A stretch of 64,000 bases of DNA from an uncultured Actinomycetes bacterium (GCA_963704725.1 OY969934.1:1889040-1953039); one strand, 5' to 3'. Shown: positions 4,840 to 48,005, counted from the first letter of the stretch. Notes: generated by a model not told the origin, from the sequence alone. Translations and numbers: made by a program.

Positions 4840-4931
4840 CCCCGGACGCCGCATGGGGGCTCACCCTTGGCCCGCGTCCGCCGGCGGCGAGCGGAGATCG
4901 GCATGTCGGGGGTCGTCTCTACAATCGGTGG

Positions 4932-6944: not shown

Positions 6945-6968
6945 CGCTCCCGGTCAGCAGCCGGGACC

Positions 6969-13234: not shown

Positions 13235-16099
13235 GTGGGCACCGACACGCTCGTGATCCACGGCGCCCGTGAACACAACCTCAGGAACGTCACGCTCGAG
13301 CTTCCCCGCGACAAACTGATCGTGTTCACGGGTCTGTCCGGCTCCGGGAAGAGCTCGCTCGCCTTCGACACGATCTACGCGGAGGGGCAGCGACGCTACG
13401 TGGAGTCGCTGTCGGCCTACGCCCGGCAGTTCCTGGGGCAGATGGAGAAGCCCGACGTCGACTTCATCGAGGGCCTCTCGCCGGCGATCTCGATCGACCA
13501 GAAGTCGACCTCCAAGAACCCCCGGTCCACCGTGGGCACGATCACCGAGATCTACGACTACCTGCGGGTGCTGTACGCGAGGATCGGCCACCCGCACTGC
13601 CCGAAGTGCGGCCGACCCATCGGACGCCAGACGCCCGAGCAGATCGTCGATCAGGTCATGCAGCTCCCGGAGGGGACGCGGTTCCAGGTCCTCGCACCGG
13701 TCGTCCGGGGCCGCAAGGGCGAGTACGAGAAGCTGCTGCAGGATCTGGCCAAGAAGGGCTTCGTGCGCGCCCGGGTCGACGGCGAGGTGCGCGACCTGTC
13801 CGAGATGATCCGCCTCCCGCGGAACTACAAGCACACGATCGAGGTCGTGGTGGACCGTCTGGTCGCCAAGCCCGACATCCGCCGGCGCGTCGCCGACTCG
13901 ATCGAAGCGGCGCTCCGCCTGACCGAGGGGATGGCCTCGATCGCCGTGCAGACGCACGAGGGCGAGGACGTCCAGACCTTCAGCCAGTCGCTCGCCTGCA
14001 CGTACGACGGGCTTAGCTTCGAGGAGCTGCAGCCCAGGAACTTCTCGTTCAACTCGCCGTACGGGGCCTGCCCGACCTGCGACGGCCTGGGGACCCGGCT
14101 CGAGGTCGACGCGGAGCTCGTCGTGCCCGATCCCGACCTGTCGATCGAGGACGGCGCGATCGCCCCGTGGGCCGGCTCGCGCCTGGAGTACTGGTACCGC
14201 GTGCTCGAGGCCGTGGCCGAGGCCCACGGGTTCTCCATGCGGACGCCGTGGAAGAAGCTGTCGAAGAAGGCCCGGGACGTCCTGCTCCTCGGCTCGGAGG
14301 AGGAGATCTACGTCCGGTACAAGAACCGGTACGGGCGGACGCGCTCCTACTGGACGACCTACGAGGGGGTCCTGCCCGCCACCTCGCGCCGGCACGCCGA
14401 GACCGACTCGGACAGCCAGCGGGAGAAGCTCGAGCAGTTCATGCGGGAGGTGCCGTGCCGATCGTGCGGCGGCGCCAGGCTGAAGCCGGAGACCCTCGCG
14501 GTGACCGTGGGCGACCGCAACATCGCGCAGCTCACGAACCTGTCGATCCGCGACACGCTGGCCTTCACGGCCACGGTCCAGCTCACCGAGCGCGAGCACA
14601 TGATCGCCGAGCGCCTGATCAAGGAGATCCGCGAGCGCCTGCAGTTCCTGGTCGACGTGGGGCTCGACTACCTGACCCTGTCGCGGGCCTCGGGCACCCT
14701 GGCCGGGGGGGAAGCTCAACGCATCCGCCTGGCCACGCAGATCGGGAGCGGGCTCGTCGGCGTCCTGTACATCCTCGACGAGCCGTCGATCGGGCTGCAC
14801 CAGCGGGACAACCGCCGGTTGATCGACACGCTCGTCCGCCTGCGGGACCTGGGGAACACGCTCATCGTCGTCGAGCACGACGAGGCGACGATCGAGGCGG
14901 CCGACCACATCGTCGACATCGGCCCGGGGGCCGGGGCCGCCGGGGGCGAGATCGTCTACACGGGGAACCTCAAGGGCCTGCTCGAGAGCGAGACCTCGCT
15001 CACCGGCATGTTCCTGTCCGGCCGCCGGGTCATCCCGACGCCCGAGGTCCGTCGGGCCCCGGGTGACCGGTGGCTGAAGGTGCTCGGCGCCCGCCAGCAC
15101 AACCTCAAGAACGTGGACCTGCAGATCCCGCTCGGCCTGTTCGTGTGCATCACCGGCGTGAGCGGCTCGGGCAAATCGACGCTGGTGCAGGAGGTGCTGC
15201 TCCGGGCGCTGATGCAGAAGGTCTACCGGTCGCGAGCGTTGCCCGGGAAGCACCGCCGGCTGGTGGGGTGGGAGCGGATCGACAAGGTGATCGACATCGA
15301 CCAGTCGCCGATCGGGCGAACGCCGCGGTCCAACCCCGCCACCTACACCGGGGTGTTCGATCACGTCCGGACGCTGTTCAGCCAGGTGCCCGAGGCCCGG
15401 GTCCGCGGCTACCAGCCGGGCCGGTTCTCGTTCAACGTCCGCGGCGGGCGGTGCGAGAACTGCGCGGGCGACGGCCAGATCAAGATCGAGATGCACTTCC
15501 TGCCCGACGTGTACGTCACGTGCGAGGTGTGCAAGGGCCACCGCTACAACCGCGAGACCCTCGAGGTGCGGTACAAGAACCGTTCGATCGCCGACGTCCT
15601 CGAGATGAGCGTCGACGAGGGGCTCGAGTTCTTCCGGAACATCCCGGTGATCAATCGACACCTGCAGACGCTCTCGGACGTCGGGCTGGGGTACGTGAAG
15701 CTCGGACAGCCCGCTCCCACGCTCTCGGGAGGCGAGGCCCAGCGGATCAAGCTCTCGTCCGAGCTGCAGAAGCGGGCCACCGGCAACACGCTCTACGTCC
15801 TGGACGAGCCCACGACCGGGTTGCACTTCGAGGACGTCCGCAAGCTGCTGAACGTCCTGCAGCGGCTGGTCTCGCAGGGCAACACCGTCCTCGTGATCGA
15901 GCACAACCTCGACGTGGTGAAGACGGCGGACTGGATCGTCGACCTCGGCCCCGAGGGCGGCGACGGAGGCGGCGAGGTCGTCGTCGCCGGCCCGCCCGAG
16001 GAGGTTGCGGCGCATCCGACGTCGCACACGGGCCGGTTCCTCGGGGAGGTGCTCGGCACCCTGCCGTTCGAGCCGGTCGGCGCCCGCCGAGACGCCTAG
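13235..16099 (+). CDS. uvrA: Excinuclease ABC subunit A
   Basis: 954 aa with two ABC ATPase modules ([14 protein letters not shown] and [11 protein letters not shown]), zinc-finger cysteines ([25 protein letters not shown] ... CEVCKG) and two LSGGEAQRI signatures. Confidence 0.95.
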
Positions 16100-22132: not shown

Positions 22133-23338
22133 ATGAGGATCCGCACGCTCGACCAGCTCGGCGACGTCGCCGGCAAGCGCGTCTTCGTTCGGGTGGACCA
22201 CAACGTCCCCCTGAAGGACGGCGTGGTGACCGACGACGCCAGGATCCGGGCGAGCCTGCCGACGATCCGGGAGCTTCTGGAGGGGGGCGCCTCGGTCGTC
22301 GCCGCGTCGCATCTCGGCCGGCCGAAGGGCCAGGTGAGAGAGGAGCTCCGGATGGCGCCGGTGGCGGCCCGCCTCGGCGAGCTGCTCGGTCGCGAGGTCC
22401 GGGCCCTGGGCGAGATCGTCGGGGATGCCGCCGAGGCGGCGTGCTCCGCCCTCGCGCCCGGCGAGGTGCTGATGCTCGAGAACCTCCGGTTCGATCCGCG
22501 GGAGGAGACGAACGACCAGGAGCTCGCCGCAGGGCTGGCCGCGCTCGCCGACGTGTACGTCGACGACGCGTTCGGCGCGGTCCATCGCGCGCATGCATCG
22601 GTCGCCGCGATGCCCGAGCGGTTCCTCCAACAGGGCCGGCCGGCGGTGGCCGGCCGGCTGCTTCAGCGGGAGGTCGAGGCGCTGTCCCGCCTCCTCGCGG
22701 ATCCGGATCGCCCCTATGTGGCCGTCCTCGGAGGAGCCAAGGTGTCCGACAAGCTCGCCACGATCGGCGCGCTCGTGGAGCGGGTCGACGCCGTCCTGAT
22801 CGGCGGGGCGATGGCGTTCACGTTCCTCGCCGCCGAGGGCGGGGAGATCGGCGACAGCCTCGTCGAGCCGGACCGCTTCGACGACGTCCGGTCCGCGCGG
22901 GCCCGGGCCGCCGAACGCGGCGTCCTGATCCAGCTCCCCGAGGACGTGGTGGCAGCGGCGGAGGCGACCGTGGAGGCCCGGCGCGAGACCGTGCCTGCGA
23001 GCGCGATCCCGAGGGGGTTGAAGGGGCTCGACATCGGCCCCCGGACCGTGGAGGAGTTCGCGCGCACCATCGCGGACGCCAAGACGATCCTGTGGAACGG
23101 GCCGATGGGCGTGTTCGAGCTGGAGCCGTTCGGCGCGGGGACGCGGGGCGTGGCGACGGCGATCGCCGGCGCCAGCGGCTTCAGCGTGGCCGGCGGCGGC
23201 GACAGCCTGGCCGCCGTCAAGCGATACGGCCTGGGGGACGGGTTCGACCATCTGTCCACGGGCGGCGGCGCGTCCCTGGAGTTCCTCGAGGGCCGATCGC
23301 TCCCCGGCATCGCCGTGCTCGAGGTGGGCGACCGATGA
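22133..23338 (+). CDS. pgk: Phosphoglycerate kinase
   Basis: 401 aa (RVDHNVPL ... TILWNGPMGVFE ... GGGDS ... STGGGASLEFLEG). Confidence 0.95.
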   Translation: MRIRTLDQLGDVAGKRVFVRVDHNVPLKDGVVTDDARIRASLPTIRELLEGGASVVAASHLGRPKGQVREELRMAPVAARLGELLGREVRALGEIVGDAAEAACSALAPGEVLMLENLRFDPREETNDQELAAGLAALADVYVDDAFGAVHRAHASVAAMPERFLQQGRPAVAGRLLQREVEALSRLLADPDRPYVAVLGGAKVSDKLATIGALVERVDAVLIGGAMAFTFLAAEGGEIGDSLVEPDRFDDVRSARARAAERGVLIQLPEDVVAAAEATVEARRETVPASAIPRGLKGLDIGPRTVEEFARTIADAKTILWNGPMGVFELEPFGAGTRGVATAIAGASGFSVAGGGDSLAAVKRYGLGDGFDHLSTGGGASLEFLEGRSLPGIAVLEVGDR

Positions 23339-30794: not shown

Positions 30795-30881
30795 GTCGGA
30801 GTGGCGGAACTTGGTAGACGCGCTAGGTTGAGGGCCTAGTGACCTTCATTGGTCGTGGGGGTTCAAATCCCCCCTCCGACA
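30795..30881 (+). tRNA. tRNA-Leu (anticodon GAG), class II with long variable arm
   Basis: Hand-folded structure. 7-bp acceptor GTCGGAG/CTCCGAC. Anticodon stem CTAGG/CCTAG with loop TTGAGGG (anticodon GAG). 17-nt variable arm. T-arm GGGGG-TTCAAAT-CCCCC. Discriminator A. No encoded CCA. Confidence 0.85.
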
Positions 30882-32515
30882 CGAACCGTACGCACACCAC
30901 TCAAGTCCGCTTCCACCAGCACCCTTCGCTTGCTGGGCTCGTAGGTGAGTGACAGGCCGAGGCTCTCGTACAAGGCGGCTTTCTGCGCAGGTTCAGCCGC
31001 CCCCAGAACGCGGACGAGATCACCCAGGCTCTCAACCAGCGCCCGGATGTCGCCCTCGGTGAGTGCCGCCGTGTGACGCCGGTGGATCTCCCCCTCGGCC
31101 ATCCTGCGCTCGGCCTGGACCTCGGCGATCCACGCGGCGACGACGGCCGGGTCCGCGCCGGCATCGAGCGTCTCCCGGTAGCGGGCGAGTCGAGCGTCAC
31201 AGTCCGCGAGGGTCCGCCGAGCGCTCTCGTCGCGGTCACTCTCCGCGTCTGACGAATCCTGAGCCTCGGCGAGCGCGCGACAGGTCTCGTCCAGGCGGTC
31301 GGGCTCGAAGAGGCGCGAGATCCACTCGTCGAGCGGCGGGACGATGTGGGTCTCCCGGACGTACACCGTTGGCGGATGATCGGCTCCGCGGGGGAGCGCG
31401 TACTCCGAGGGGTAACGGCAGCGGTAGTACGCCTGGTCGTGGGTCCAGCTGCCTTGCATCCGGCGCTTGCAGAGTCCGCACCAAAGCAGGCCGCGGAGCA
31501 GGTAGGGGCGTGGTGTCCGGCGGGGCTTGCGGGTCGTGGTTCGCCCGTTGGCGACCCTCCGCACGCGGGCGGCTTCGAACAACTCCGGAGCGATCAGTGG
31601 CTCGTGCGCGAGGCCGGGGGAGCGGACCCAGGCCTCCTCGTCGTTCCATCGGAGCCGAGTCCTGTGACCCGCGGCGACGTCCTCGACGTCGACCAAGACC
31701 TCGTCGCGACGCTGCCGGCCCCAGACTGCCACTCCCGTGTACCGAGGGTTGGTCAGGACCGCCCGGACGGCACTCTTGCTCCAGCCCTGCCCGTTCCGGT
31801 GGGCGTTGCGACCCCGGTCATAGGCGGAGGGGGAGGAGATGCCGTCGCGGGTCAGAGCGTCTGCGATCGCGAAGAGGCCACGGCCCGACACGTACTCATC
31901 GAAGATCCGGACGACGATGTGCGCCGTGACGGGGTCGGGCTCGAGGTTGTGGATCCGGATGCCGAGGGCGGCCTTCCCCGGGTTGGGGTGAGGGCCTGCG
32001 TCCGCCAAGCGGTACCCGTACGGTGGGCGGCCGCCCAGGAATCGACCCTCGGTGGCGATCTGCGCGGCCATCGCGGTCCGGACCCTCGTTCGGATGCGGG
32101 AGCGCTCGCCTTTGCTCATGCCGCCGAACAGCGTCATGACCATGTCGTGGGCCTCGGAGCCCGGGTCGACCCGACCGCCGACCTCGGGGACCCACAGCTC
32201 GACGCCGTAGTGCTCGAAGAGCGGGAAGGTCAGGGCGAACTGAGCGCCGTAGAAGGCCCGCTGTGGCTCGCCGATGACGACGGCCTCGAAGCCGCGGTCC
32301 GGGGAACGAAGCAAGTCGAGCAGCCTGGAGGCTTCCGGCCTGCGCTTCCACGGGAGCGAGCGCGACTGTCCGATGTCGAAGAACTCGGCGACGATCTCGC
32401 CGCGCGCCGGCTCGACGTGCTCCAGGGCCCGCCGGAGCTGCCAGGCTCGCGAGGAGGCCGGGTCCTGCTGGTCCTCGGTCGAGACGCGTCCGTAAAAGGC
32501 AAAGGGCTTCGTCAT
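30863..32515 (-). CDS. Large serine recombinase (serine integrase)
   Basis: N-terminal resolvase catalytic domain (FAFYGRVSTEDQ ... nucleophilic Ser). Recombinase domain with a zinc-ribbon (CGLCKRRMQGSWTHDQAYYRCRY). C-terminal coiled-coil region. Stop codon lies inside the tRNA-Leu 3' end. Alternative start at 32539. Confidence 0.85.
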   Translation of the reverse strand: MTKPFAFYGRVSTEDQQDPASSRAWQLRRALEHVEPARGEIVAEFFDIGQSRSLPWKRRPEASRLLDLLRSPDRGFEAVVIGEPQRAFYGAQFALTFPLFEHYGVELWVPEVGGRVDPGSEAHDMVMTLFGGMSKGERSRIRTRVRTAMAAQIATEGRFLGGRPPYGYRLADAGPHPNPGKAALGIRIHNLEPDPVTAHIVVRIFDEYVSGRGLFAIADALTRDGISSPSAYDRGRNAHRNGQGWSKSAVRAVLTNPRYTGVAVWGRQRRDEVLVDVEDVAAGHRTRLRWNDEEAWVRSPGLAHEPLIAPELFEAARVRRVANGRTTTRKPRRTPRPYLLRGLLWCGLCKRRMQGSWTHDQAYYRCRYPSEYALPRGADHPPTVYVRETHIVPPLDEWISRLFEPDRLDETCRALAEAQDSSDAESDRDESARRTLADCDARLARYRETLDAGADPAVVAAWIAEVQAERRMAEGEIHRRHTAALTEGDIRALVESLGDLVRVLGAAEPAQKAALYESLGLSLTYEPSKRRVLVEADLSGVRTVRVGGGI

Positions 32516-32845
32516 CCGTGCTCCGCTCGGTGCTGGCATGCGAGCCGAGCCTGCATGTCTGATGTCGGCGGTTGAGCGCTCATCCTAGTGGCGTGTGGTG
32601 TCATCCCTCGGGCTCCGTCGGCCGGGCATGTTCGAGGACCTCCAACAGAATCCGCGCGGCTTTCGCTGTCAGCCAAGGCGGCTCCACTGGGATGGCCACC
32701 CGAAGTCGGACGTCATCGTCCACGACTTGCAGTTCCGACCTTCCATCGGACGGTGCGGCTTCCCGCTCCTCGCCCGAACCATGACCTACCGGCCCGCGTC
32801 CAGGGGGTTCGCGTTCGACCTGGCGCGCTTCGGCGCGCCCGCCCG

Positions 32846-33835
32846 TCAAGGAGCATGTCGGGGCGGAAGGGCGCGGAATCGGGGCGTGGCGGAGGCGGGG
32901 GAGATCCGGCGCCGGTGGCCGGGATCGGCGTCGGTGAAGTACCGGCCGAGGCATGGAGTTGTTCGGTAGAGGTCGCGGGATCGGGCCGCCAGGTCGACGA
33001 GCGAGAGGCGATCGCTGTCGGTTGGCACGTGCTTCCATGCCTGGCCGAGCACGCCGAGCCTGGTGAGCCGATCCTCGCTCGCCACGTGCAGCGGGAACGA
33101 GCTCGCGAGCGACCCGGAGGCATGCAGGCTCGTGGTCGCCGAGCGGTAGGCGGTGGCGACCTCCCCCTCACGCTCCTCCTCCGGGACCAGGACGAGGAGG
33201 TTCGGGAACCCGGCCAGTTCTTGCTCCCTCGTCCAACCCGCCGCGAGGCGCAGGTAGCCCTCGAGCTTGCGCGTGAGTGCGCCGCGTGCCTCGGTGGCCC
33301 GGTCGTACTCGAAGTAGAACTCGCACGAACCGCCGGGATGCAGGTACCGCCCGAAGCCGTCTGGCTTGATCTCCGCTGCCTTGGTCCGGACCCAGCGCTC
33401 GGGCCGCCAGGTGGCCAGACAATGGTCCTGGAAGGCCCTGGAGGCCTCGGCGAGGGCGCAGAAGAACGCGTTGACCCCCAGGCGGTGGGCGATGAGCTTG
33501 TTCGTCCGGTAGCTCGCATCGGGCACCCAGGGCAGGTCCGAGGTCCGGACGTCATTCGCATTTGCGATCTCGATGAGCCCTTCCTTCGTGAGGTGCCAGC
33601 ACGCGGGAGCCCTCCCCTCCCCGAAACCCCTCCCCACCGAGAAGGAGGAGACCAACCCCATCTCTTTCAGCTCCCTCATCCGGTGCTGGCACCTCCTGAG
33701 AGAGCGGAAGTGAAGGCTCGTGATCTGGTGCGTGGTGAGGATCTTGTGCTCGAGCATGCTGAGGAGGATCGCGAGGTCTCGCTCGTCGATCGCGCTCGCG
33801 CGCGCGCGATAGGTGTTTCGTTCTGCTCGAACCAT
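32846..33835 (-). CDS. Replication-relaxation family protein (actinobacterial integrative-element RepA/relaxase-like)
   Basis: About 329 aa from ATG at 33833-33835 (MVRAERNTYRARASAIDERDLAILLSMLEHKILTTHQITSLHF ... winged-helix N-terminus). Sits next to the serine recombinase. Confidence 0.6.
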   Translation of the reverse strand: MVRAERNTYRARASAIDERDLAILLSMLEHKILTTHQITSLHFRSLRRCQHRMRELKEMGLVSSFSVGRGFGEGRAPACWHLTKEGLIEIANANDVRTSDLPWVPDASYRTNKLIAHRLGVNAFFCALAEASRAFQDHCLATWRPERWVRTKAAEIKPDGFGRYLHPGGSCEFYFEYDRATEARGALTRKLEGYLRLAAGWTREQELAGFPNLLVLVPEEEREGEVATAYRSATTSLHASGSLASSFPLHVASEDRLTRLGVLGQAWKHVPTDSDRLSLVDLAARSRDLYRTTPCLGRYFTDADPGHRRRISPASATPRFRALPPRHAP

Positions 33836-35221
33836 GATTCGGGCACAGCCCTCCCCCCTCCTTCGGTGGGTGGCCTTCGGCGTAAAGGCCCCGTGACCTG
33901 GCCTTTTGCGCCATCGCACCCGGCGCGATCGCGCTGCCCACGCGCCGCGGCTCACGGCAGTGGGGCAGCGCGACGTCGCGCCAGGGCGCGTGCGCGCACT
34001 CCGCCAGATCGACGGATCTTCAGTTCGTGCCCGTGCTCACCTCCCTCCCCGCCGCTCGCACGGCGTTTCTCAGTCGCCGGCCGAGACTCGCCTTCGGCCG
34101 TCCGGCTCAGGGCTCTTTCGCGGTGATCCGCGTCCCCTCGCCGGCGCTTCAGTCCCGTTCGCTCGCCGTCCGAGCGCTCCTCCGGCCTCCGTTCGCTCCG
34201 AGCGCGCCTCCTCGTGAGGTGCCCGGGTTCGGGGCCGTCCTGATCGCTCGTCCGACGGCGTCCGTGATCGTGGCGCCGGCCTTGTCGCGCATCTCCGCTC
34301 GGTGCCCGGGCCGGTCGCCGGTGGCGAGGGAGCCGTCGCCCTCGGAGTCCTGCTCGCGGCCAAGCGGTGGATCGCCTGCACGTCTGCTGTTGTCTGCTCG
34401 ATCGTGGATGGTGCCGGTCCCCATTCAGTTCCTCCCGGCTCCACGTTTGCTCCACGTCTCGTGCCTGGAGATGGGTGAGGACAGTCGGCCGGGGCGCAGA
34501 GAAGACGTGGAGTTCGCCCGGGAGGAAGGGGGACGGGATGGGGACAGGCCCCTGGCGTCGGGCCTCTGCTCCACATGGTCGTGGTGCAGATGTAGAGACG
34601 GGTCGCCGGGGAGGGACAGGGCGGAGACACGTCTCCAGGCCCCGCGCTCCTGCCTGGAGGCCAACATGATGTTCGCGCCGCGGACGTCCATGATCCGTCG
34701 CCCCAGCCTGATGACGACAGACTCGCCGCTGGCAGACGGCAGCAGCGCGCGGTCTGGCCGAGCTTGATGGGTTGGTCATCCTCACCGGCACAAAGACAGG
34801 CAACGACCCGAACCTTGACGGCCAGGACCGAGAGTTCCGGGAAGATCCCGTGGCGACCGGCGGGCCCCACCCGGGTTCCGCACATGGGCCCGCCAGGTCG
34901 GCGCGTCGGGTCGCCCGCTGCCGATCCGATCGCGCGAGGGCTGGGCGGTAGGACCGAACCGGAACTCGATTGGCACCGGCCAAGAACCGGCGACGGCGGC
35001 CGCCGACAGGGCGGCCCCGCTAGAGCCCCGTTCGAGCCTGACCGCGACGGCGTGCTGAGCGTGATCATGTCCACCCGTACAAGGGCGCGGGAAGGCGCCC
35101 AGAGCGTGTCGGCCCACGCGGGGGAGTTCTGGGGGAGTCTCCGGAGGCGCAGGTCAGACCAGGTCTGGCCAGGGGTCTGCGGAGGGTTGGGGCGAAGGCG
35201 AGCTACTGATCGGCGAGGGGT

Positions 35222-35287
35222 TGACAGGCGGGATGGTTTCGCATTCAATCAACCCTCTAACAGGGGCTCACATAGTGGGGAGGCCGA
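35222..35287 (+). promoter_or_regulatory. Candidate promoter and Shine-Dalgarno for the Rhs toxin gene
   Basis: Consensus -35 TTGACA at 35222-35227, then a weak -10 candidate (CATTCAAT). Strong SD GGGGAGG lies 5 nt before the ATG at 35288. Confidence 0.45.
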
Positions 35288-38200
35288 ATGGTTTCGCTAC
35301 GTGTGTGCGCCCCGTGGTCCTCGTTCCGATCCCGTCCGATCTTCAGATCGCTCGGGCGTCTACGTGGGTCGATGATCTGTGGCCTCACGGTGGCTTCGCT
35401 CATTACCGTCGTGCTTCCAGTGCCCAGTGCAGTGGCGATCGCTCAGCAGGATGCCATCACCTACGTCTACGACGATCTGGGGAGACTCGAGGCCGTCGTC
35501 GATCCCGGCCAAACGAACGGCATCGCCCGCTACACGTATGACAGCGCCGGCAATCTCCTCTCGATCGCGAGGCAGAGCTCCACCGTCACCACGGTCCTGG
35601 ACTTCCAGCCGAAGACCACGACCCGCAGCTCCTCGGTCACCGTCTACGGGGCGGGGTTCAGCCCGACGGCGGGGCAGAACACCGTCCGGTTCGGTGGGCC
35701 GTCGGGCACCGCCGCGACGGTCGTCTCGGCGACAAAGACGCAGCTCCAGGTCACGGTGCCGGCCTCGGGCTCCGTCAACGGGACGGTCTTCGTCTCGAGC
35801 CCCGGCGGGAGCGCCACGAGCTCCCAGCAGTTCGCGCTCGACACGTCGACACCGCCGGCCATCACGGGGATCTCCGCCGCCGTCGCCACGATGGGATCGA
35901 CCGTCACCGTGACGGGCTCGGGCTTCGACCCTTCGGCACCGGCGATGAACAACGTCTTCCTGAACGGGATCAGGGCCCAGGTCACGGCGGCGACGGCGAC
36001 AACCCTCACCACCGTGGTGCCCCCGTTCCTCACGTCCGGACACGTCTCCGTCCAGACCCGCTGGGGCCAGGCGACCTCGATGAGCGACCTGTTCGTCCCG
36101 CCCGCCATCGACGGCGTGCCCTCCGCCGTCACCGATGTCGAGAGCACGGGACGCACGACCCTTGGTACGCCGACGGCGGTGAGCGTCACGACGCCGCAGA
36201 AGGTGGCCGTCCGGTCCTTCGACGGCACGCAGGGCGGCCGGGTCTTCATGGAGTTCTCGAGCCCGTCGGGGAACCAGGCCTGGCTGAGCCTGGTGGATCC
36301 GTTCGGCCGCGTGATGGGGAAGGACCTGATGACGACGGGCTTCCTGGAGCCCCGCACGCTGCCGGTGAGCGGGACCTACGAGGTCGTCGTCGACCCGATC
36401 GACACACAGACCGGCAACTTCACGTTCACCGCATTCGACGTCCCCGCCGACCTCTCGGGGACGATCACGCCCGACGGCGGACCGGTCGTGGCGAACATCA
36501 CCGCGAAGGGCCAGAACGCCGGCTACACCTTCACGGGCACGGCCAACCAACGCGTGTCCCTCCGGTTCAACGGTTCGGGGTGGACGGGGCTCTACTGGGT
36601 CCGCATCCTGCGGCCCGAGGGGATCGAGCTGACGAGCACGCTGAGCGTCTTCGGGTGGCAGGACCCGGTCACGCTGCCCGTCTCCGGCATCTACACGGTC
36701 GTGATCGACCCGATCGCTGGGGCCACCGGCTCCACGACTCTGACCGCCTACGACGTGCCGCCCGACAGCTCTGGGCCGATCCAGCCCAACGGCCCACCGG
36801 TGAACGTCACCGTCACGGCCGACAACGCGGGCCAGAACGCGAACCTGACCTTCGATTCGACCGTCAACCAGCAGGCGACGATCAACGTCACCGGCTCCAC
36901 GTTCCCGCAGGCCTACGCCCACCTCTACCTCGGGACCCCGCCGACGAACCCGATCTCGCTGAACCACCTGTTCCTCGGCGGGAACACCACGATCGGCCCC
37001 ATCTCCCTGTCCGCCGCGGGCAGCTACACCCTGGTGATCGACCCGATCGGCGGGTTCACGGGAAGCGCGAACATCGCGCTCACGCTGGCAGCGGGCCGTG
37101 CGACGCCGAGAGGGGGGCGGGGCGATCGCCTAAGGACGGACAGGCCGCCGTCCCCGCATTCACCGAGAGCAGCCACGGCGCTGGCCGGAGTCGTGCTCGG
37201 TCTGGACGGCTCGCCGCTCGCCGGCGTGAGCGTCGGCAGCGGAGACGTGGCAGGCGCGACCGACTCGAACGGCAGGTTCCGCCTTGCGGGCCTTCATGCC
37301 GGCCCGGGGGTCCTGGTCGTCGACGGGGCAAGCGCGTCGACCGAGGGCGCGAGCTACGGGCTGTTCCAGATCCAGGTCGAGCTCGAGCGCGGACGAACCA
37401 CGGAGCTCGGGTCCCCGGTGTGGATGCCGGAGCTCGACACGCGGCACGTCCGCCGCATCGCCAGCCCCACCCGGCGCGACGTCGTCCTTCGGACCCCGCT
37501 TGTTCCCGGGCTGCGGATCCAGATCCCGAAGGGGTCCTTGGTCAGGGATCTGGATGGTCGGGCGGTCCACGAGCTCTCGATCACGCCAGTTCCGATCGAC
37601 CGGCCACCGTTCCCGATGCCGGATGCGCCCGACTTCCCCATCTACTTCACCGTCCAGCCCGGTGGCGCCGCCGTCCTGCCCGAGGGTGCGCGGATCATCT
37701 ACCCGAATTCGGCGGCCCTGCCGGCCGGAACCGAGGTCCGGTACATGGACTACGAGCCCGCGGAGGACGGCTGGGAGTTCTACGGTCGTGGACGCGTCTC
37801 GCCCGATGGCATGCGGATCGTGCCCGATCCCGACACCCGGGTCCGTGCGTTCACCGGCTCCGCCTACCCGATCCCTCTCTACCTGTCGCCTCCGCTGGCA
37901 GATACGAACCCGCTCTCCGAGCTCGGCGAGCCCGTGGACCTGTCGACCGGGTTGTTCCACTACACGAAGACGGACCTCGCGCTGCCCGGCCCCATGCCGA
38001 TCCAGCTCACCCGGATCTACCGGCAAGGGGATCCGAACGCGGAGCCCTTCGGCCTCGGCATGACGTACAGCTACCAGTCCTATCTGAGCTGGGACTGGCC
38101 GTCCCCCGACAACCAGTGGAAGGACCTCATCCTTCCCGGCGGGGTCCGGGTGCACTTCGACCGGATCACCCCCGGGACCGACGTGGAGCACGCCGTCTAC

Positions 38201-41200
38201 GAGGCGACCGCTACACCGGGGCCGTTCTTCAAGTCCCGGATCAGCTGGGATCCGGTGCTGCGGTCCTGGCTCCTCACGCGGCGGGACGGCACGGTGATGG
38301 TCTTCGGGCTGGGGGGAAGCGGGAGCGCGTTGCGAGACGTGGCGGACCGGTACGGCAACCGCCTCGTGCTGATCGGGCCCGCCGGAACGAGTCCCCAGCC
38401 TGCCACGCAGATCGTCTCCTGGCCCTCGGGCAGGTGGATCAACCTGTCGATCTCGAACGGCCGGGTGACGCAGGCCACCGACGACCTGGGGCGGAGCGTC
38501 GGGTACGGCTACGACGGGCAGGGGCGCCTGGCGAGCGTGACCGACCCGAACCAGTTCGGCCAGCCCTCGCCGAAGTCGTCCATCTACGGCTGGGTCACCG
38601 ATCCCGACTGCACAAGTCCGGGATCCGTGCTCGCCACGATCACCGATCCCCGCAACATCACGTGGCTGTCGAACACCTACGGGCCCGGGTGCCGGGTTAC
38701 GCAGCAGACCGTCCCCACGGCGACGGGGACCGACGTCTACACGTTCGCGTACACGCCCTCGGGGCCCGGCGCCGTCACTCAGGCGGACATGACGGATCCC
38801 AACGGCAACGTGCACCGGGAGTCCTTCGACTCGACCGGCTACATGACGTCGGAGACCATCGCGCTGGGAACGCCGTCCGCGCGGACGTTCACGTACGAGC
38901 GGGACCCCACCAACCACCGCACCAGCGCCGTCGTCGATGCCTTCCACAACCGCAGGACCGAGTTCACGTACAACGCGTTCGGCCAGCCGACGTCCGTCAC
39001 CCGTCTTGCCGGCACCCCGCAGGCGGTCACCACGTCGTACACGTACGATCCGGTCTTCCGACAGCTGGAGACGATCACCGATCCACTCACCCACGTCACA
39101 CGCTTCGCGTACGACGCGGCGGGATGTCTCGACTCGGTCCAAGACCCGATGAGCCGGACGACCTTGTTCGACTGCAACGGTGCCGGTCAGATCACGCAGA
39201 TCACCGATCCGCTCACGCACGCGAGTGTGCTCTCCTACGCTCATGGAGACCTCACCTCAGCGACGGATCCGCTCGGTCGGACCACGTCTCGGTTCACCGA
39301 CGGCGGTGGGCGCGTCCTCGCGGTCACAGATCCGCTCAACCACCCGACGACCTACGCCTTCGACAAGCTGAACGAGCTCACCCAGGTCACCGATCCGATC
39401 GGCGGGCTCATCTCGTTCACCCTCGACGAAGACGGCAACCTCACCGAGGTGAACGACCAGCGCCGGGGATCGCCCAGCCGGACCGACCTCGTTTACAACA
39501 ACCTGAACCTGCCGAGCACTCGAACCGACCCACTCGGCCGTCAGGAGACGTTCACCTACGACGACCTCGGCAACCTGACGTTCTGGACCGACCGCAAGAA
39601 CCAGACGACGGAGTTCCGCTACGACGCACTCAACCAGCTGACGTTCGCGGGATACAAGCGGACGGCGGGGCCGGTTTACGAGTCCACGATCACCTACACG
39701 TGGGACGTCGGGAGCCGGCTGACGCAGATCGCGGACACGACAGCCAACGCCGGCACGATCACGCGGACCTACGATGACCTGGACCGGCTCACGAACGAGA
39801 CCTCGGTCAACGCTTCGGCCTCGGGGGTCACCTACACGTACAACCCCGATGACACCCGGGCGACGATGACCGTGCAGAACCAGACCCAGGTGCTCTACGG
39901 CTACAACCCGGCCGCCCAGCTCACGAGCCTCACCCAAGGCGGCCTGGTGGTCGGCCTGGACTACCTCGGCGACGGCAGGCTCCGCCAGGTCTCCCTCCCC
40001 TCCTCGCCGGTGCTCACGCAGACCTACGCGTACGACGCGGCGGGCGAGATCGCCTCGATCGCCTACCAACGCGGTACCGGCACCCCGGACGACCTCTCCT
40101 ACGGCTACGACCCGAGCGGGGCTCGGACCTCGGTCTTCGGCAGCTACGCCCGCACGGGGCTCCCCGCCGCCACGACGGCCACGGCCGTCTACAACGTCGC
40201 GAACCAGCTGACGTCGTGGAGCGGAGCCGCAGTGGCGAGCGACCTCAACGGCAACATGACGTCGCAGGCCGGGCTCACCTACGCGTACAACGCGCGCAAC
40301 CAGCTCACGAGCGTAAAGCAGAGCAAGACCACGCTCGGCGCCTTCGTCTACGACGGACTGGGCCGACGCGTGCGCCGCACGATCTCGTCCGCGGTCACGC
40401 GGCCCGTCTACGATGGGTGGAACGTGGTCCAGGAACGGAGCAGCGCGGGCTCGGTGACGGCGAACCTACTCGTGGGGCGCGGGCTGGATGACGTCTTCAC
40501 CCGGACCGAAACGGCCCAACGGGAGTTCTTGTCCGACGCTTTGGGCTCGACCGTCGCGCTTGCCGACACCTCCGGGGTGGTGCAGACCTCCTACACGTAC
40601 GAGCCGTTCGGCCGGACCACTGCCACCGGGGCGTCGAGTTCGAGCACTTACCAGTTCACGGGCAGGGAGAACGATTCGACGGGGACGCTCTCGCTCTACA
40701 ACCTGCGAGCCCGATACCTGTCGCCGACGTTGGCGAGGTTCATCAGCCAGGATCCGATAGGCCTCTCAAGCAGTGACGTCAACTTGTACGAGTACGCTGA
40801 TGACACGCCGACGGGCCGTATCGATCCGACCGGCCTCTTCAGCGTCTGGCCTCCAGTTGTTGGCCCAGACTTGAGCGTGCACGAGGTTGGCGGGGGCAAC
40901 CCAGCGGGTTGGGTTTGGGACAGCACAGTGGGAACCATCTCCCACCTGGATGACTGGTGGTCGATGGCACGGAAGGATTTTGAACGCCAATCCGAGTTCG
41001 TAAGGCGCGAAGGAGGGTGGATGGCCGATGACCTGTTCGGAGAGCACGGCATACTGACGTCGTTCGGTCAATGCTTGGTCGTCGGTTTGGACTACATGAT
41101 CCTCGCCACCAACGCGGGCCTGGACCCCGAGGATGCCGCTCTGTTCGGGCTAGTTGGCTGCGCGGTGGGGATGAACACTCCGCCGACGCCACCCATTACC

Positions 41201-41203
41201 TAG
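35288..41203 (+). CDS. Rhs/YD-repeat polymorphic toxin (1971 aa) with IPT/TIG-like domains, carboxypeptidase-regulatory-like domain, RHS core and a novel C-terminal domain
   Basis: Long signal-like N-terminus. N-terminal YD motif (YVYDDLGRLEAVVDPG ... YTYDSAGNLLSI). Several Ig-like/IPT segments (VTVYGAGFSPTAGQNTVRFGG). Dozens of YD repeats (e.g. YGYDGQGRLASVTDPN, FTYDDLGNLTFWTDRKNQ). RHS repeat-associated core (LYNLRARYLSPTLARFISQDPIGLSSSDVNLYEYADDTPTGRIDPTGL). It ends at 40837 and is followed by a 121-aa CT domain (40838..41200). Confidence 0.85.
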   Translation: MVSLRVCAPWSSFRSRPIFRSLGRLRGSMICGLTVASLITVVLPVPSAVAIAQQDAITYVYDDLGRLEAVVDPGQTNGIARYTYDSAGNLLSIARQSSTVTTVLDFQPKTTTRSSSVTVYGAGFSPTAGQNTVRFGGPSGTAATVVSATKTQLQVTVPASGSVNGTVFVSSPGGSATSSQQFALDTSTPPAITGISAAVATMGSTVTVTGSGFDPSAPAMNNVFLNGIRAQVTAATATTLTTVVPPFLTSGHVSVQTRWGQATSMSDLFVPPAIDGVPSAVTDVESTGRTTLGTPTAVSVTTPQKVAVRSFDGTQGGRVFMEFSSPSGNQAWLSLVDPFGRVMGKDLMTTGFLEPRTLPVSGTYEVVVDPIDTQTGNFTFTAFDVPADLSGTITPDGGPVVANITAKGQNAGYTFTGTANQRVSLRFNGSGWTGLYWVRILRPEGIELTSTLSVFGWQDPVTLPVSGIYTVVIDPIAGATGSTTLTAYDVPPDSSGPIQPNGPPVNVTVTADNAGQNANLTFDSTVNQQATINVTGSTFPQAYAHLYLGTPPTNPISLNHLFLGGNTTIGPISLSAAGSYTLVIDPIGGFTGSANIALTLAAGRATPRGGRGDRLRTDRPPSPHSPRAATALAGVVLGLDGSPLAGVSVGSGDVAGATDSNGRFRLAGLHAGPGVLVVDGASASTEGASYGLFQIQVELERGRTTELGSPVWMPELDTRHVRRIASPTRRDVVLRTPLVPGLRIQIPKGSLVRDLDGRAVHELSITPVPIDRPPFPMPDAPDFPIYFTVQPGGAAVLPEGARIIYPNSAALPAGTEVRYMDYEPAEDGWEFYGRGRVSPDGMRIVPDPDTRVRAFTGSAYPIPLYLSPPLADTNPLSELGEPVDLSTGLFHYTKTDLALPGPMPIQLTRIYRQGDPNAEPFGLGMTYSYQSYLSWDWPSPDNQWKDLILPGGVRVHFDRITPGTDVEHAVYEATATPGPFFKSRISWDPVLRSWLLTRRDGTVMVFGLGGSGSALRDVADRYGNRLVLIGPAGTSPQPATQIVSWPSGRWINLSISNGRVTQATDDLGRSVGYGYDGQGRLASVTDPNQFGQPSPKSSIYGWVTDPDCTSPGSVLATITDPRNITWLSNTYGPGCRVTQQTVPTATGTDVYTFAYTPSGPGAVTQADMTDPNGNVHRESFDSTGYMTSETIALGTPSARTFTYERDPTNHRTSAVVDAFHNRRTEFTYNAFGQPTSVTRLAGTPQAVTTSYTYDPVFRQLETITDPLTHVTRFAYDAAGCLDSVQDPMSRTTLFDCNGAGQITQITDPLTHASVLSYAHGDLTSATDPLGRTTSRFTDGGGRVLAVTDPLNHPTTYAFDKLNELTQVTDPIGGLISFTLDEDGNLTEVNDQRRGSPSRTDLVYNNLNLPSTRTDPLGRQETFTYDDLGNLTFWTDRKNQTTEFRYDALNQLTFAGYKRTAGPVYESTITYTWDVGSRLTQIADTTANAGTITRTYDDLDRLTNETSVNASASGVTYTYNPDDTRATMTVQNQTQVLYGYNPAAQLTSLTQGGLVVGLDYLGDGRLRQVSLPSSPVLTQTYAYDAAGEIASIAYQRGTGTPDDLSYGYDPSGARTSVFGSYARTGLPAATTATAVYNVANQLTSWSGAAVASDLNGNMTSQAGLTYAYNARNQLTSVKQSKTTLGAFVYDGLGRRVRRTISSAVTRPVYDGWNVVQERSSAGSVTANLLVGRGLDDVFTRTETAQREFLSDALGSTVALADTSGVVQTSYTYEPFGRTTATGASSSSTYQFTGRENDSTGTLSLYNLRARYLSPTLARFISQDPIGLSSSDVNLYEYADDTPTGRIDPTGLFSVWPPVVGPDLSVHEVGGGNPAGWVWDSTVGTISHLDDWWSMARKDFERQSEFVRREGGWMADDLFGEHGILTSFGQCLVVGLDYMILATNAGLDPEDAALFGLVGCAVGMNTPPTPPIT

Positions 41204-41209
41204 TCATCG

Positions 41210-41656
41210 ATGACACACGAAGAGAAAGACGAGAAGCGTCAGCGCAAAGGACCGTTGATGCACGATCCGTCAGAGGATGTTCGACGACGCCACGCCATCC
41301 TGCTGATTGTCGTGGGGCTCGGACTCCTAAGCGTCGGCACCGTCTCTTGGGTGCGAGGCGGCTCACCGGCGGCCATGGCTTCCATGATTCCCGGACTTGC
41401 GGGAGTGCTCGGAGGTCTCCTGCTCCTCGCTCGCCGGGGCCTAATCCTCCGCCCTACCGCGAGGTTTCTGAGCATCCAGCCCGACGTCTTGCTGAAGCTC
41501 TCGGTGGTGGCTCTGGCGGCGGCTTCAGCTGTGTACCTCGGCTGGGTAGCGGTTGTTCAGTACCGCCAGGGTAGGGCGGACGCGGGATTGACCGTCGTGA
41601 TGGCGGCACTGAGCATCTACGTGACAATTCGGGCTTTCACCAACCTTCGCCGATAG
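41210..41656 (+). CDS. Putative Rhs-toxin immunity protein, 4-TM membrane protein
   Basis: 148 aa starting 7 nt after the Rhs stop codon. Four predicted TM helices (AILLIVVGLGLLSVGTV, MIPGLAGVLGGLLLLA, LLKLSVVALAAASAVYLGWVAVV, LTVVMAALSIYVTIRAF). Lowest GC in the window (about 53%). Confidence 0.55.
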   Translation: MTHEEKDEKRQRKGPLMHDPSEDVRRRHAILLIVVGLGLLSVGTVSWVRGGSPAAMASMIPGLAGVLGGLLLLARRGLILRPTARFLSIQPDVLLKLSVVALAAASAVYLGWVAVVQYRQGRADAGLTVVMAALSIYVTIRAFTNLRR

Positions 41657-41934
41657 GACGGTTACCGGCCGTCGCTCTTCGCGGTTGGCAGGTGCAGAGG
41701 CCGGGACGCACTCAGGATGCGTGACGAGAACCTTAACAGGGGAACCGGTTCACACATCGTCCAGCAAGGTCCACGATTGGGCACCTGTGTGACCACCGCG
41801 GCCGTCCCTGCGACGGACTTGACCGCCACTGGTGGGGTTTACGGGCCGAATCACGCTGAGAGGCGAAGTTCACCTCGAAGGACGAGCCGCGTACGTATGG
41901 TCGTCGACGGTCCTCCGACACCACTGTGATGTGT

Positions 41935-43205
41935 CGGGTGCATCGTGGCCGGATGTGTCGGTGCATCGTAGCCGCCCTCACGAGGCTTGAGGCTGGTAGT
42001 CGCGGGCCGGGTCCAGTGTGAGATGTCGAAGCAGCTCTCCGTTCGCCGACACCACCCGCACGTCCAGACCGTTGATCAGCAGGATCACCCGCTTGCCCTT
42101 GTGAGCGTGACCCACGCCGATGTGGTGCAGCCGCGTTCCATGGCGCAGCGTGACCTTCCCGCCCTTGTCGATCCGGTCCCGACGCACCCGAACGCCCGCA
42201 CCCACGCGGATCCTGGGTCCTGAGGGACGCGCCTTGTCTCTGGCCTCGAACGCCGCTCTGGGCGGCCTGCGGCCCAGCGCTGCATGCGGCCTGCGGTCGT
42301 TGTAGTAGGCGACGAACCGATCGACCTGGTCTTGCAGCTCACCGAGCGAGCTGGCCTTGGGCTGACGGGCCAGGTAGGTCTTCATCGTCTGGTGGAAGCG
42401 CTCGACCTTGCCGCAGGTCTGGGGGTGATAGGGCCGGGAGTGACGGTAGTCGATACCGAGCGCCAGCAGCTCGGTCTGCATCACGTTGGGCCCTCCCCGG
42501 TGCCACGTCGTGTAGACGCAGCCGTTGTCGGTCAAAAGCGCCGCCGGGAACCCCCAGCGCGCGCCGGCTTCGCGGAAGACCTCGAGCACCTTGGGGGCGG
42601 TGGCGGTCCGCATCACCACCGAGGCCACGGCCGCCCGGGAGTGGTCATCCAGGAAGTTGCAGATGTCGACCTCGGTCCCATCCCCAAGCCGCCAGTGGGT
42701 CACGTCGGACTGCCAGCACTCGTTGGGAAGCGTGGCCTCGAAGCGGATCCAGGAGCTCCGGGGCCGCTTGTGGGGCTGGGAGACCACGAAGCCACGACGT
42801 CTCAGCACCCGCCAGATCGTCGAGATCGACGGCACCCGGTCGTGCCTCGTGCTCAGGTGGTAGGCGATCGTGGCCGCGCCGGCATCCACGCCCAGCTCCG
42901 TGAGCTCCGTGCGCAGGGCGCAGATCTCGTCCTCGAGCGCATGCAGGCGTGCGGTGCGGGATCGTCTTGGGCGCCCTCGACCGCGGGGCGATCGCCTCGT
43001 AGCCGCCCGATCGGTACCGGGCGACCAGCTTGCCGACCCAGCTCTTGGAGACCCCGTGGGCCCGGGCCACCTCCCGGTAGCTCCGTCCCTCCAGCACGAC
43101 CGCGTCCACCACGTAGCGAGCCAGATCCATCGCAGACCCCCGTTGAAGGTGTCCACGATGCTCCGACACATGTGTCCACTATCCGGTGAACTCAGGCACC
43201 CCCTC
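41935..43205. mobile_element. IS481-family insertion sequence (about 1.27 kb), boundaries approximate
   Basis: Imperfect terminal inverted repeats TGTGTCGGGTGCATCGTGG (41940-41958) and CCACGATGCTCCGACACA (43162-43179, reverse complement TGTGTCGGAGCATCGTGG). Flanked by 13-bp direct repeats CCTCCGACACCAC (41922-41934 and 43207-43219). Internal DDE transposase gene. Confidence 0.6.
41978..43169 (-). pseudogene. IS481-family DDE transposase, frameshifted
   Basis: N-terminal HTH part is in one frame (start 43169; MDLARYVVDAVVLEGRSYREVARAHGVSKSWVGKLVARYRSGGYEAIAPRSRAPKTIPHRTP). The remainder is shifted by 1 from about 42955 (ARLHALEDEICALRTELTELGVDAGAATIAYHL ... integrase core with D..D..E: WQSDVTH, LTDNGCVYT, CGKVERFHQTMK), ending at the stop 41978-41980. 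Confidence 0.7.
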
Positions 43206-43281
43206 CGACACCACCTGTCCACTATCCGCTGAGGTCGAATCGGGGCCCAGGTGAACCACGCCCGCGTCGTACAGTGCCTCG

Positions 43282-43608
43282 GTGTCGTCGAAAGGGGTGA
43301 GGCGGATGGTCGCGGTCGGATTGCTCGTCCCATTGAAGGCGAAGCCCGGCAAGGAGGATGACGTGGCGCGATTCCTCGAGGGCGGGCTCGCGCTCGTCAA
43401 CGAGGAACCGGCGACGACGGCGTGGTTCGCGATCCGGCTCGGCCCGTCCGAGTTCGCGATCGTGGACTTCTTCCCGGACGACGCGGGCCGGCAGGCGCAT
43501 CTGTCGGGCCGGGTGGCCGAGGCCCTGATGGCCCAGGCCCCCGATCTGTTCGCCGAGGCGCCCGACATCCGACCGGCTGACGTCATCGCCGCCAAGCTTC
43601 CCGGGTAG
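43282..43608 (+). CDS. Antibiotic-biosynthesis-monooxygenase (ABM/Dabb) domain protein
   Basis: About 100 aa ferredoxin-like fold candidate (VAVGLLVPLKAKPGKEDDVARFLEGGLALVNEEPATTAWFAIRL). Start may be 43306. Confidence 0.45.
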   Translation: MSSKGVRRMVAVGLLVPLKAKPGKEDDVARFLEGGLALVNEEPATTAWFAIRLGPSEFAIVDFFPDDAGRQAHLSGRVAEALMAQAPDLFAEAPDIRPADVIAAKLPG

Positions 43609-46937: not shown

Positions 46938-48005
46938 TCAGGCGCGATCGACGGCCGCGGCCCGGTCCAGGACGTCCATGATCGCGGCGGCGGCGTCCTC
47001 GACTCCGACCGTCCGGTCCACGATGCCGAGCTCTGCGGCCGCCTTGGGCATCCCGTACACGACGCACGATCGCTCGTCCTGGCCGAGGATGGTGCCGCCG
47101 GCCCGCTTGAGCTCGAGCAGACCCTCGGCGCCGTCGTCGCCCATCCCCGTGAGGATCAGCGCGAGCGCGCGGGTCCCGACGGCGTGGGCGACCGAACGGA
47201 ACAGGTACGTCGCGGACGGCCGATGCCCGCCGATGGGAGGTTCGTTCGACAGCGCGACGCGGCGCAGGCGGGTCACGCCGAGGTGGCGATCGTGCGGGGC
47301 GATCAGGACGCGTCCGGGGACGAGGGGCTCGCCGTCGAGCGCGAGGTGAACCTCGAGACGGGATGCGGTGTTCAGCCACTCGGCGAACCCGCGATCGAAC
47401 CCGGAGGCGATGTGCTGCACGAGCACGATCGGAACGGGCAGGTCCGCGGGGAGGGAGGACAGGATCGTGGCGAGCGCGGCGGGGCCGCCCGTCGAGGCGC
47501 CGATGGCGATGAGGTCGATCCCACCGGAGCCCGGGTGCGGGTGGGTCCCGCCGACGAGCGGTGGGGGGCGCTCGGCGCTCGGGCGGCGAGGACGCCTGGT
47601 GACGACCTTCACGCGCGCCATGCTCTTGAGCGTCCGCAGCACCTCGTCCGCCTGCCGGGCGAACTCCGGAGCGGCCGGGCTGCCCGGCTTGTCCAGGACG
47701 GTGAGGGCGCCCGCCTCCAGGACGGGGAACGTCTCGCGCACCTCGCCGGCGTCGTAGCGAGAGCTGATGAGCACGATCGGCCGCGGGTTCCGCTCCATGA
47801 TCTCCCGCGTCGCCTGGAGGCCGTCCATGACCGGCATGTGGATGTCCATCGTGATGATGTCGGGAAGGACCGAGGCCGCGAGCGCCACCGCCTCGGCGCC
47901 GTCCGTCGCCTCGGCCACGACCTTCACGTCCGGGTCGGAGGCCAGGATCCGGTTCAGCACCTGGCGGGCCACGGGCGAATCGTCGACGACCATGACCCTG
48001 AGCAT
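46938..48005 (-). CDS. cheB: Chemotaxis response regulator protein-glutamate methylesterase
   Basis: N-terminal receiver (VMVVDDSPVARQVL ... DIHMPVMDG). C-terminal methylesterase (IAIGASTGGPAAL ... HIASGF ... LTGMGDDGAEG). Confidence 0.9.
   Translation of the reverse strand: MLRVMVVDDSPVARQVLNRILASDPDVKVVAEATDGAEAVALAASVLPDIITMDIHMPVMDGLQATREIMERNPRPIVLISSRYDAGEVRETFPVLEAGALTVLDKPGSPAAPEFARQADEVLRTLKSMARVKVVTRRPRRPSAERPPPLVGGTHPHPGSGGIDLIAIGASTGGPAALATILSSLPADLPVPIVLVQHIASGFDRGFAEWLNTASRLEVHLALDGEPLVPGRVLIAPHDRHLGVTRLRRVALSNEPPIGGHRPSATYLFRSVAHAVGTRALALILTGMGDDGAEGLLELKRAGGTILGQDERSCVVYGMPKAAAELGIVDRTVGVEDAAAAIMDVLDRAAAVDRA

Follow-up and report, generated by a model that had tools for sequence, protein, structure and literature searches.

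A stretch of 64,000 nucleotides from an uncultured Actinomycetes bacterium (GCA_963704725.1 OY969934.1:1889040-1953039), hereafter the window, contains a gene for a Rhs/YD-repeat polymorphic toxin. The last 121 codons of this gene (the tip) and a small open reading frame (ORF) directly downstream make up a cassette (40838-41656), and its reading as a toxin with a cognate immunity gene is well supported by context. Our preferred account of its mechanism, to which we give an even chance, is that a Sec-exported Rhs toxin would carry a membrane-depolarising tip, acting in the manner of the Tse5/Tsi5 pair without belonging to that family, and that the downstream ORF would encode a membrane immunity protein. 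The membrane mechanism is inferred from the modest hydrophobicity of the tip and the membrane nature of its partner.

Where does the Rhs shell end and the tip begin? A first-pass annotation had placed the end of the core at the DPTGL motif (nt 40837) and counted 121 residues after it, and the boundary is borne out in several ways. The match to TIGR03696 (Rhs_assc_core) terminates precisely in DDTPTGRIDPTGL at nt 40837, corresponding to residue 1850, and carries the PxxxxDPxGL pattern. PDB chains of Rhs and teneurin proteins that match the last 600 residues, including Tse5 and RhsA-like proteins, cease aligning at the same residue. Among relatives of the gene (approximately 170 compared), hypervariability sets in exactly after DPxGL. 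The tip consists of residues 1851-1971 (codons at 40838-41200) and is followed by a TAG stop at 41201-41203.

The cassette also stands out in base composition. The guanine-plus-cytosine content (GC) is 61.8% in the cassette against 70% for the window, and no other stretch of 819 nt is lower; segments of this length with a GC as low as that of the cassette account for 0.5% of all those in the 64 kb, and each of them overlaps it. The drop that had been noted earlier is thus real but shallower than described: the Rhs core has 68.1% GC, within the 67-70% given for it, while the tip has 61.2% and the downstream ORF 62.4%, not 57-60% and about 53%. GC at third codon positions (GC3) falls from 0.90 in the core to 0.73 in the tip and 0.70 in the downstream ORF. 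Nevertheless, the order GC3>GC1>GC2 persists in the Rhs frame through the tip and into the downstream ORF, and both therefore look coding.

The downstream ORF starts 6 nt after the Rhs stop, rather than the 7 nt reported at first; its length of 148 aa and its four transmembrane (TM) segments were described correctly. Both the NCBI and the Logan gene calls begin it at M17 (41258), which gives 132 aa. Kyte-Doolittle (KD) hydropathy, calculated in 19-residue windows, reaches 1.7-2.35 in the four hydrophobic segments, and a single-sequence AlphaFold2 (AF2) model, with a predicted local distance difference test score (pLDDT) of 67.6, places helices at 20-50, 53-75, 91-120, and 125-147. The basic N-terminus and basic middle loop suggest an N-in/C-in topology. 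An internal duplication of the ORF was considered and was not significant. Position and size fit a small cognate immunity gene, and tight spacing with a small downstream ORF recurs in dozens of Rhs relatives. The Rhs gene and the downstream ORF happen to share one reading frame, split by TAG and two codons (ACC TAG TCA TCG ATG, 41198-41212).

It is the position after DPxGL, the hypervariability beyond it, the small and tightly spaced ORF, and the compositional trough that support a polymorphic toxin/immunity pair.

What kind of toxin might the tip be? The first ~47 residues are rich in Trp and acidic. Their end overlaps with a stretch (residues 37-58) that is predicted to form a charged amphipathic helix, with a hydrophobic moment of 0.53 and a mean hydrophobicity of -0.47. 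The remainder contains two predicted helices of moderate hydrophobicity, joined by an acidic turn and bearing small-xxx-small motifs (G71-S75-C79-G83 and A100-G104-C108). Cys79 and Cys108 flank this hydrophobic hairpin, and residues 71-121 have a net charge of -4 with no basic residue at all. A single-sequence AF2 model of the tip gives helices at 37-58, 62-66, 75-92, and 97-113.

The tip was described at the outset as being of unrecognised type, and this holds against all libraries searched. Pfam, NCBIfam, PADLOC, and PDB sequences returned nothing; the best sub-threshold Pfam match was DUF1427 (E 0.2), with none other at E<=1, and a search of PDB sequences at E<=10 gave one spurious match only, a profile of the tip with its relatives likewise giving none. 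No model or motif match was found in the tip for the enzymatic tip families, namely HNH and other nucleases, deaminases, ADP-ribosyltransferases, RES, NADases, Tlde1, TNT, and Ntox. A regular-expression scan of the tip for HxE, CxxC, RES, RxxR, and Wx[ST]IP was equally empty, in agreement with the earlier statement that HNH, deaminase, RES, and ADP-ribosyltransferase motifs are lacking. As a control of sensitivity, a few of the related tips were recognised by the same Pfam search as Ntox10, Pput2613 deaminase, Tlde1, or TNT. Foldseek of the tip model against PDB found no fold match (best E 1.1), the model itself being unreliable. By its sequence, the tip is a member of no described toxin family.

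Larger collections were also searched. A combined k-mer and HMMER search over 5.8 billion proteins yielded nothing for the tip, which is a weak negative for full-length fusions: the search missed the 1971-aa parent protein, which is present in the collection, and seems to list only proteins of up to 1047 aa. An exhaustive phmmer search of 1.84 billion cluster representatives produced two eukaryote-like repeat proteins, which were dropped because their scores were sums of weak repeats; the negative is limited in that a long Rhs protein may be represented in clustered libraries by a relative with another tip. The database search with the downstream ORF found only itself. The 77 Rhs loci obtained from genome contigs and discussed below contained no relative of the tip or of the downstream ORF, and two metagenome scans, plasmids, and viral contigs yielded nothing.

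The exception comes from the Rhs relatives. When the last 600 residues were used as query, 1784 relatives were obtained, and nearly all of the best 120 cover ~80% of the query, that is, the core only. One of these 120, P0085, extends into the tip, with 42% identity across the junction (pairwise BLASTP E 4e-12); against the tip alone, it gives E 9e-6 among 124 sequences. P0085 belongs to a metagenomic contig, L079 (JGI Ga0394876_0000903), that carries three tandem and uncharacterised Rhs C-terminal modules of 264, 412, and 416 aa (3312-7540). The three modules have VGWPPIAPPYEGGGFDPVGWLWDRLAYGWDWLQDGWSKCRKD in common after DPxGL and then diverge. The first ~47 residues of the tip are ~41% identical to those of the modules, with Smith-Waterman z = 12-20 against shuffles. 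Thus, the tip is not wholly novel, and its unique part amounts to ~74 residues. A hidden Markov model (HMM) built from this 47-residue segment was run against ~200 Rhs relatives; besides this gene it matched the three L079 modules and nothing else. The modules are near-identical upstream and count as one independent lineage.

Module 2 of L079 is the sole full-length relative of the tip. The two align over 118 residues at 30.5% identity (pairwise E 3.5e-14, z = 19.6) and end at an equivalent position after a similar Pro-rich tail, which indicates that the C-terminal end of the tip is genuine and not a truncation. The signal resides mostly in the first ~47 residues; the tails compared alone give z = 3.0, a score reached by 6 of 500 shuffles. 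Modules 1 and 3 have tails that bear no relation to that of the tip. Behind each L079 module lies a small ORF with two TM segments, and the downstream ORF of the window shows no detectable homology to these, including the one after module 2.

Four different tails have been seen after the 47-residue segment, each with its own putative membrane immunity protein. This has led us to a further proposal, one that we consider doubtful: by analogy with the modular entry domains of CdiA-CT ionophores, the segment would be a portable and previously undescribed pre-toxin or membrane-entry module of Sec-exported Rhs toxins, joined to varied short hydrophobic tails and docking them at the target membrane. 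If it were so, the tail in the window, with two helices stapled by Cys, would be among the smallest Rhs-delivered pore formers. The segment provides a handle for finding further short membrane-targeting tips. Three other properties of L079 can be recorded. The array stands immediately behind housekeeping genes, and the part of the contig that was fetched has no full-length Rhs gene upstream of it; the GC drop of L079 begins after the shared 42-residue segment and not at DPxGL; and the tail of module 1 (~4014-4060) contains a second, degenerate copy of G.G..P.GW..D.LA, AVGAGAGPIGWAFDALA, so that this motif may be a repeatable unit.

How does the cassette compare with those of other Rhs loci? 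The comparison drew on 77 related genomic loci, which supplied 47 more distinct tips together with the ORFs behind them. These tips range from 64 to 372 residues and are mutually unrelated. Of 48 tips of related Rhs loci, ~43 have no Pfam family, and the approximately five that match belong to Ntox10, PT-HINT with Pput2613 deaminase, Tlde1, and TNT. An unannotated tip is the normal state in this Rhs clade; the cassette is ordinary polymorphic-toxin dark matter, of a kind that specialists would expect. In 25 of the 47 cases, the ORF behind the tip has one predicted TM segment or more. The closest relatives of the Rhs gene share 58-64% identity in the core, and two of them have a similar design: P0006 has a hydrophobic tip of 77 aa followed by a 4-TM ORF of 122 aa, and P0008 has a hydrophobic tip of 95 aa followed by a 3-TM ORF of 94 aa. 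The putative immunity ORFs, that of the window included, resemble one another in topology, and no sequence similarity among them is significant. A soluble partner, a TPR protein, is found in P0005, the only such case among the closest relatives. A family of Cys-bracketed hydrophobic hairpins (G-x-C-L ... G-C), uniting the tail of the tip with P0006, P0024, and L079 module 2, was tried and abandoned, as a leave-one-out HMM did not rise above shuffles (46 of 1000); it is a pattern only.

The case for a membrane-active tip is built on the four-TM partner, the predicted amphipathic and hydrophobic helices, the two-TM ORFs of L079, the shared design of P0006 and P0008, and the lack of an enzymatic motif or family match. 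According to this model, the Rhs protein would be exported by Sec and displayed on the surface; the shell would cleave itself after DPTGL and keep the tip enclosed. Once a competitor is met, the tip would be released and attack the cytoplasmic membrane. Docking at the membrane interface would fall to its amphipathic helix and to the acidic, Trp-rich stretch of the first ~47 residues, and the two hydrophobic helices, bearing glycine-zipper-like motifs, would insert and oligomerise into an ion-conducting pore, with loss of the membrane potential. A Cys79-Cys108 disulfide may staple the two helices together. In the membrane of the producer, the downstream protein would bind the helices within the bilayer and thereby block their insertion or oligomerisation.

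Several observations weigh against this model. The second half of the tip had been called strongly hydrophobic, which is an overstatement: only one 19-residue window rises above the TM threshold (KD 1.63) and the second stretch is ~15 residues long, so that both are borderline. Asp85 lies within the first hydrophobic helix, three acidic residues occupy the connecting turn, and the tip as a whole has a net charge of -11; translocation of such a hairpin would be costly. The AF2 model of the tip is unreliable at pLDDT 48 and comes without a fold match. Furthermore, an ORF with at least two TM segments follows 19 of the 47 surveyed tips, with wide differences among those tips, and this weakens the argument from a membrane partner. 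Finally, tip and downstream ORF are present as a single copy each in all collections searched, and purifying selection and co-conservation are therefore without support.

Alternatively, the tip might be a small soluble toxin made up of helices throughout, with the activity of an enzyme or of a tight-binding inhibitor. The hydrophobic helices would then form the core of a bundle, the target would be found on the membrane's outer face or within the cell, and the four-TM protein would serve as a membrane-anchored immunity protein. The modest hydrophobicity, the acidic residue in the first helix, and the net charge suit such a toxin, as do the four helices predicted by AF2, which might pack as a bundle, and the TM immunity ORFs that accompany many unrelated tips of the clade. 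Yet a catalytic motif is lacking, searches of families, PDB, and folds gave no match, the variable part of only ~74 residues is small for an enzyme, and the tips of the closest relatives are shorter still and more plainly hydrophobic. On balance, a soluble toxin seems rather unlikely.

Does the cassette work at all? It might be a relic, a non-working pair left over from recombination on a mobile island, in which case the downstream ORF would be an unrelated membrane protein or no gene. Both ORFs are singletons in every collection searched, and an insertion sequence (IS) lies ~290 nt downstream of the candidate immunity gene. There is no obvious Shine-Dalgarno sequence before the ATG at 41210, and a scan for promoters and terminators gave no signal, the scan being uninformative. 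However, the two ORFs remain unbroken and retain the GC3>GC1>GC2 pattern, the tip stops at the same relative position as L079 module 2, and the tight spacing and TM-bearing downstream ORF match the pattern of dozens of relatives. Moreover, singletons are to be expected in this genome: its PGK (22133-23335), UvrA (13235-16096), and CheB (46941-48005) are each the sole member of a 90%-identity cluster among ~15 billion proteins, which points to a poorly sampled lineage and not to decay. The organism is without a close sequenced relative, and arguments from the failure to find a homologue are weakened accordingly. A relic or non-working pair is an improbable explanation. It is far less probable still that tip and downstream ORF once were, or through read-through of the TAG still are, one polypeptide with six hydrophobic helices: they share a frame and are separated by 9 nt including the stop, but a shared frame is expected by chance in one case out of three, the end of L079 module 2 is equivalent, after its Pro-rich tail and with a separate ORF downstream, and in all relatives toxin and immunity protein are as a rule encoded by separate genes.

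How would a protein of this kind leave the cell? The N-terminus of the Rhs protein, MICGLTVASLITVVLPVPSAVAIA/QQ after an Arg-rich stretch, resembles a Sec signal peptide. PAAR, VgrG-binding, and LXG/WXG100 domains are all absent from the full-length protein (Pfam, NCBIfam), and no secretion-system gene was found among the ~30 neighbouring ORFs scanned, which have functions in repair, transport, chemotaxis, and mobility; delivery by a type VI or type VII secretion system is not indicated. Reportedly, WapA of Bacillus subtilis is likewise a Sec-dependent surface YD-repeat protein that carries a polymorphic toxin after the core motif and an immunity gene downstream, without a type VI system. The WapA tips are said to be tRNases with soluble cytoplasmic immunity proteins; by contrast, the tip in the window lacks a nuclease signature and is paired with a membrane protein.

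In mechanism, the closest parallel would be Tse5 (RhsP1, PA2684) of Pseudomonas aeruginosa, in which a 149-residue tip after DPXGL, containing both amphipathic and TM helices, makes ion-selective pores and causes cells to depolarise, and for which the immunity protein Tsi5 has two TM regions (PMC9637101). Both systems have a Rhs shell ending in DPxGL, a short tip without enzymatic signature (149 aa in Tse5 and 121 aa here) and with predicted amphipathic and TM helices, and an integral membrane partner encoded directly downstream. The differences are substantial. Tse5 is delivered by a type VI system in a Gram-negative bacterium, whereas the protein described here has a signal-peptide-like N-terminus and no PAAR/VgrG partner in the gene; the tips have no sequence similarity, the Tse5 shell aligning to the end of the core only; and the downstream ORF has four TM regions instead of two.

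Another possible parallel is Tox-WTIP, a C-terminal domain with two TM helices that is predicted to form pores, the only one of its kind described for RHS proteins; its description comes from proteobacteria (Zhang et al. 2012, PMC3482391). In both cases a two-helix toxin domain would stand at the end of an RHS-repeat protein. However, the RxxR of the first TM helix and the Wx[ST]IP of the second in Tox-WTIP are absent here, and there is no Pfam match. A two-part tip with a polymorphic membrane immunity protein is found in the ionophores used in contact-dependent growth inhibition (CDI). In CdiA-CT of the EC93 type, an N-terminal module common to different toxins is followed by a helical, membrane-active C-terminal module, and the CdiI proteins are highly polymorphic integral membrane proteins, with members of a group only ~30% identical (PMC11630599). 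Divergence as fast as that of CdiI would explain why no homology is detectable between the downstream ORF and the ORFs of L079. In contrast to the cassette in the window, CDI toxins are delivered by CdiB/CdiA (a type V system) and not by a Rhs shell, and no CdiA, filamentous-haemagglutinin, or PT-VENN domain was found in the Rhs protein by Pfam. The CDI ionophore is a five-helix bundle, compared with a tail of ~74 residues for which three to four helices are predicted at low confidence, and CDI entry domains use known inner-membrane receptors.

Should the tip prove to be a pore former, it would add a new and very small membrane-active family, together with its partner, to the Rhs repertoire, in a poorly sampled high-GC lineage and without a type VI system. 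Since most tips of this Rhs clade are unannotated and ~40% are paired with ORFs of at least two TM segments, soil bacteria may have, in short membrane-targeting tips, a major class of weapons against other bacteria that is for the most part uncharacterised.

The features of the cassette, the Rhs gene, and the surrounding element are collected in Table 1.

Table 1. Coordinates of the cassette, the Rhs gene, and associated features in the window
Feature	Coordinates	Strand	Evidence and remarks
tRNA-Leu(GAG)	30795..30882	+	ARAGORN, Rfam; abuts end of large serine recombinase gene
Large serine recombinase	30863-32539	-	Pfam Resolvase, Recombinase, Zn_ribbon_recom
Replic_Relax protein	32846-33955	-	Pfam
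Rhs/YD-repeat polymorphic toxin gene	35288..41203	+	1971 aa; M29 at 35372 is an alternative start
Rhs-associated core domain with the DPTGL autoproteolysis motif at its end	40598..40837	+	TIGR03696, residues 1771-1850, E 8e-19; shell/tip boundary
Tip residues 1-47, Trp-rich acidic, WPP..GGG.P.GW.WD....L.D.WS..RKD	40838..40978	+	Common to three L079 Rhs modules
Amphipathic charged helix, tip residues 37-58 (predicted)	40946..41011	+	AF2 single-sequence, low confidence
Two moderately hydrophobic helices, tip ~75-92 and ~97-113 (predicted), with acidic turn NAGLDPEDA	41048..41176	+	Hydropathy, AF2, motif scan
Uncharged Pro-rich tail NTPPTPPIT and TAG stop	41177..41203	+	Aligned to L079 module 2
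Candidate immunity gene, 148 aa (132 aa from ATG 41258), four TM helices as two hairpins	41210..41656	+	Translation, hydropathy, AF2
IS element, rve-family transposase, 39-nt imperfect terminal inverted repeats	41942..43182	-	Pfam rve, rve_3, HTH_32

From N- to C-terminus, the Rhs protein consists of the signal-peptide-like segment, an IPT/TIG domain, three ~105-aa repeats, a CarboxypepD_reg-like domain, DUF6531, the YD shell, the core, and the tip. Pfam finds PF05593 RHS_repeat in 12 stretches (E 8e-50) besides DUF6531 and IPT/TIG, and NCBIfam finds TIGR01643 YD_repeat_2x in nine. The three tandem units of ~105 residues lie ahead of the shell (36349-37062, residues ~355-590) with a spacing of 315-333 nt and a conserved ...SGxYxVVIDPI... 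motif. They have no Pfam assignment and may be a surface-display or adhesion repeat.

The Rhs locus seems to be the cargo of a mobile element. The 3' end of the tRNA-Leu gene, CCCCCTCCGACAC (13 nt, 30870-30882), recurs at 43199-43211, where it is followed by CA as in the CCA end of a tRNA. This suggests that the two copies are candidate attL and attR sites of a 12.3-kb integrative island (~30870-43211). Between them are found the serine recombinase, the Replic_Relax gene, a tract of ~1.3 kb devoid of convincing genes, the Rhs gene, the downstream ORF, and the rve-family IS. The GC of the island is 68.1%, compared with 70.6% for the rest of the window, and it is surrounded by chromosomal genes, namely uvrABC and pgk, those of an oligopeptide ABC transporter and of S9 peptidases, and che genes. 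No further orphan modules were found within the window. The region that lacks a convincing gene extends from Replic_Relax to the Rhs start (33956-35287); two publicly called ORFs (34027-34767 and 34764-35375) are rich in Arg, Pro, and Ser, match no family, and are probably not genes. At the P0006 locus (L080, 3562-4236), a Replic_Relax gene 31% identical to that of the window also stands beside the Rhs cassette, and a DNA methyltransferase and a phage terminase are encoded near the P0008 locus (L082, 5400-6646). This Rhs subclade may travel on mobile elements.

The listed ORF of the IS (451 aa, 41978-43333) overruns the right repeat, and its true start is therefore probably internal. The left repeat of the IS is also where an independent short-read Logan contig, which is identical to 33852-41966, breaks off, as expected for an IS present in multiple copies.

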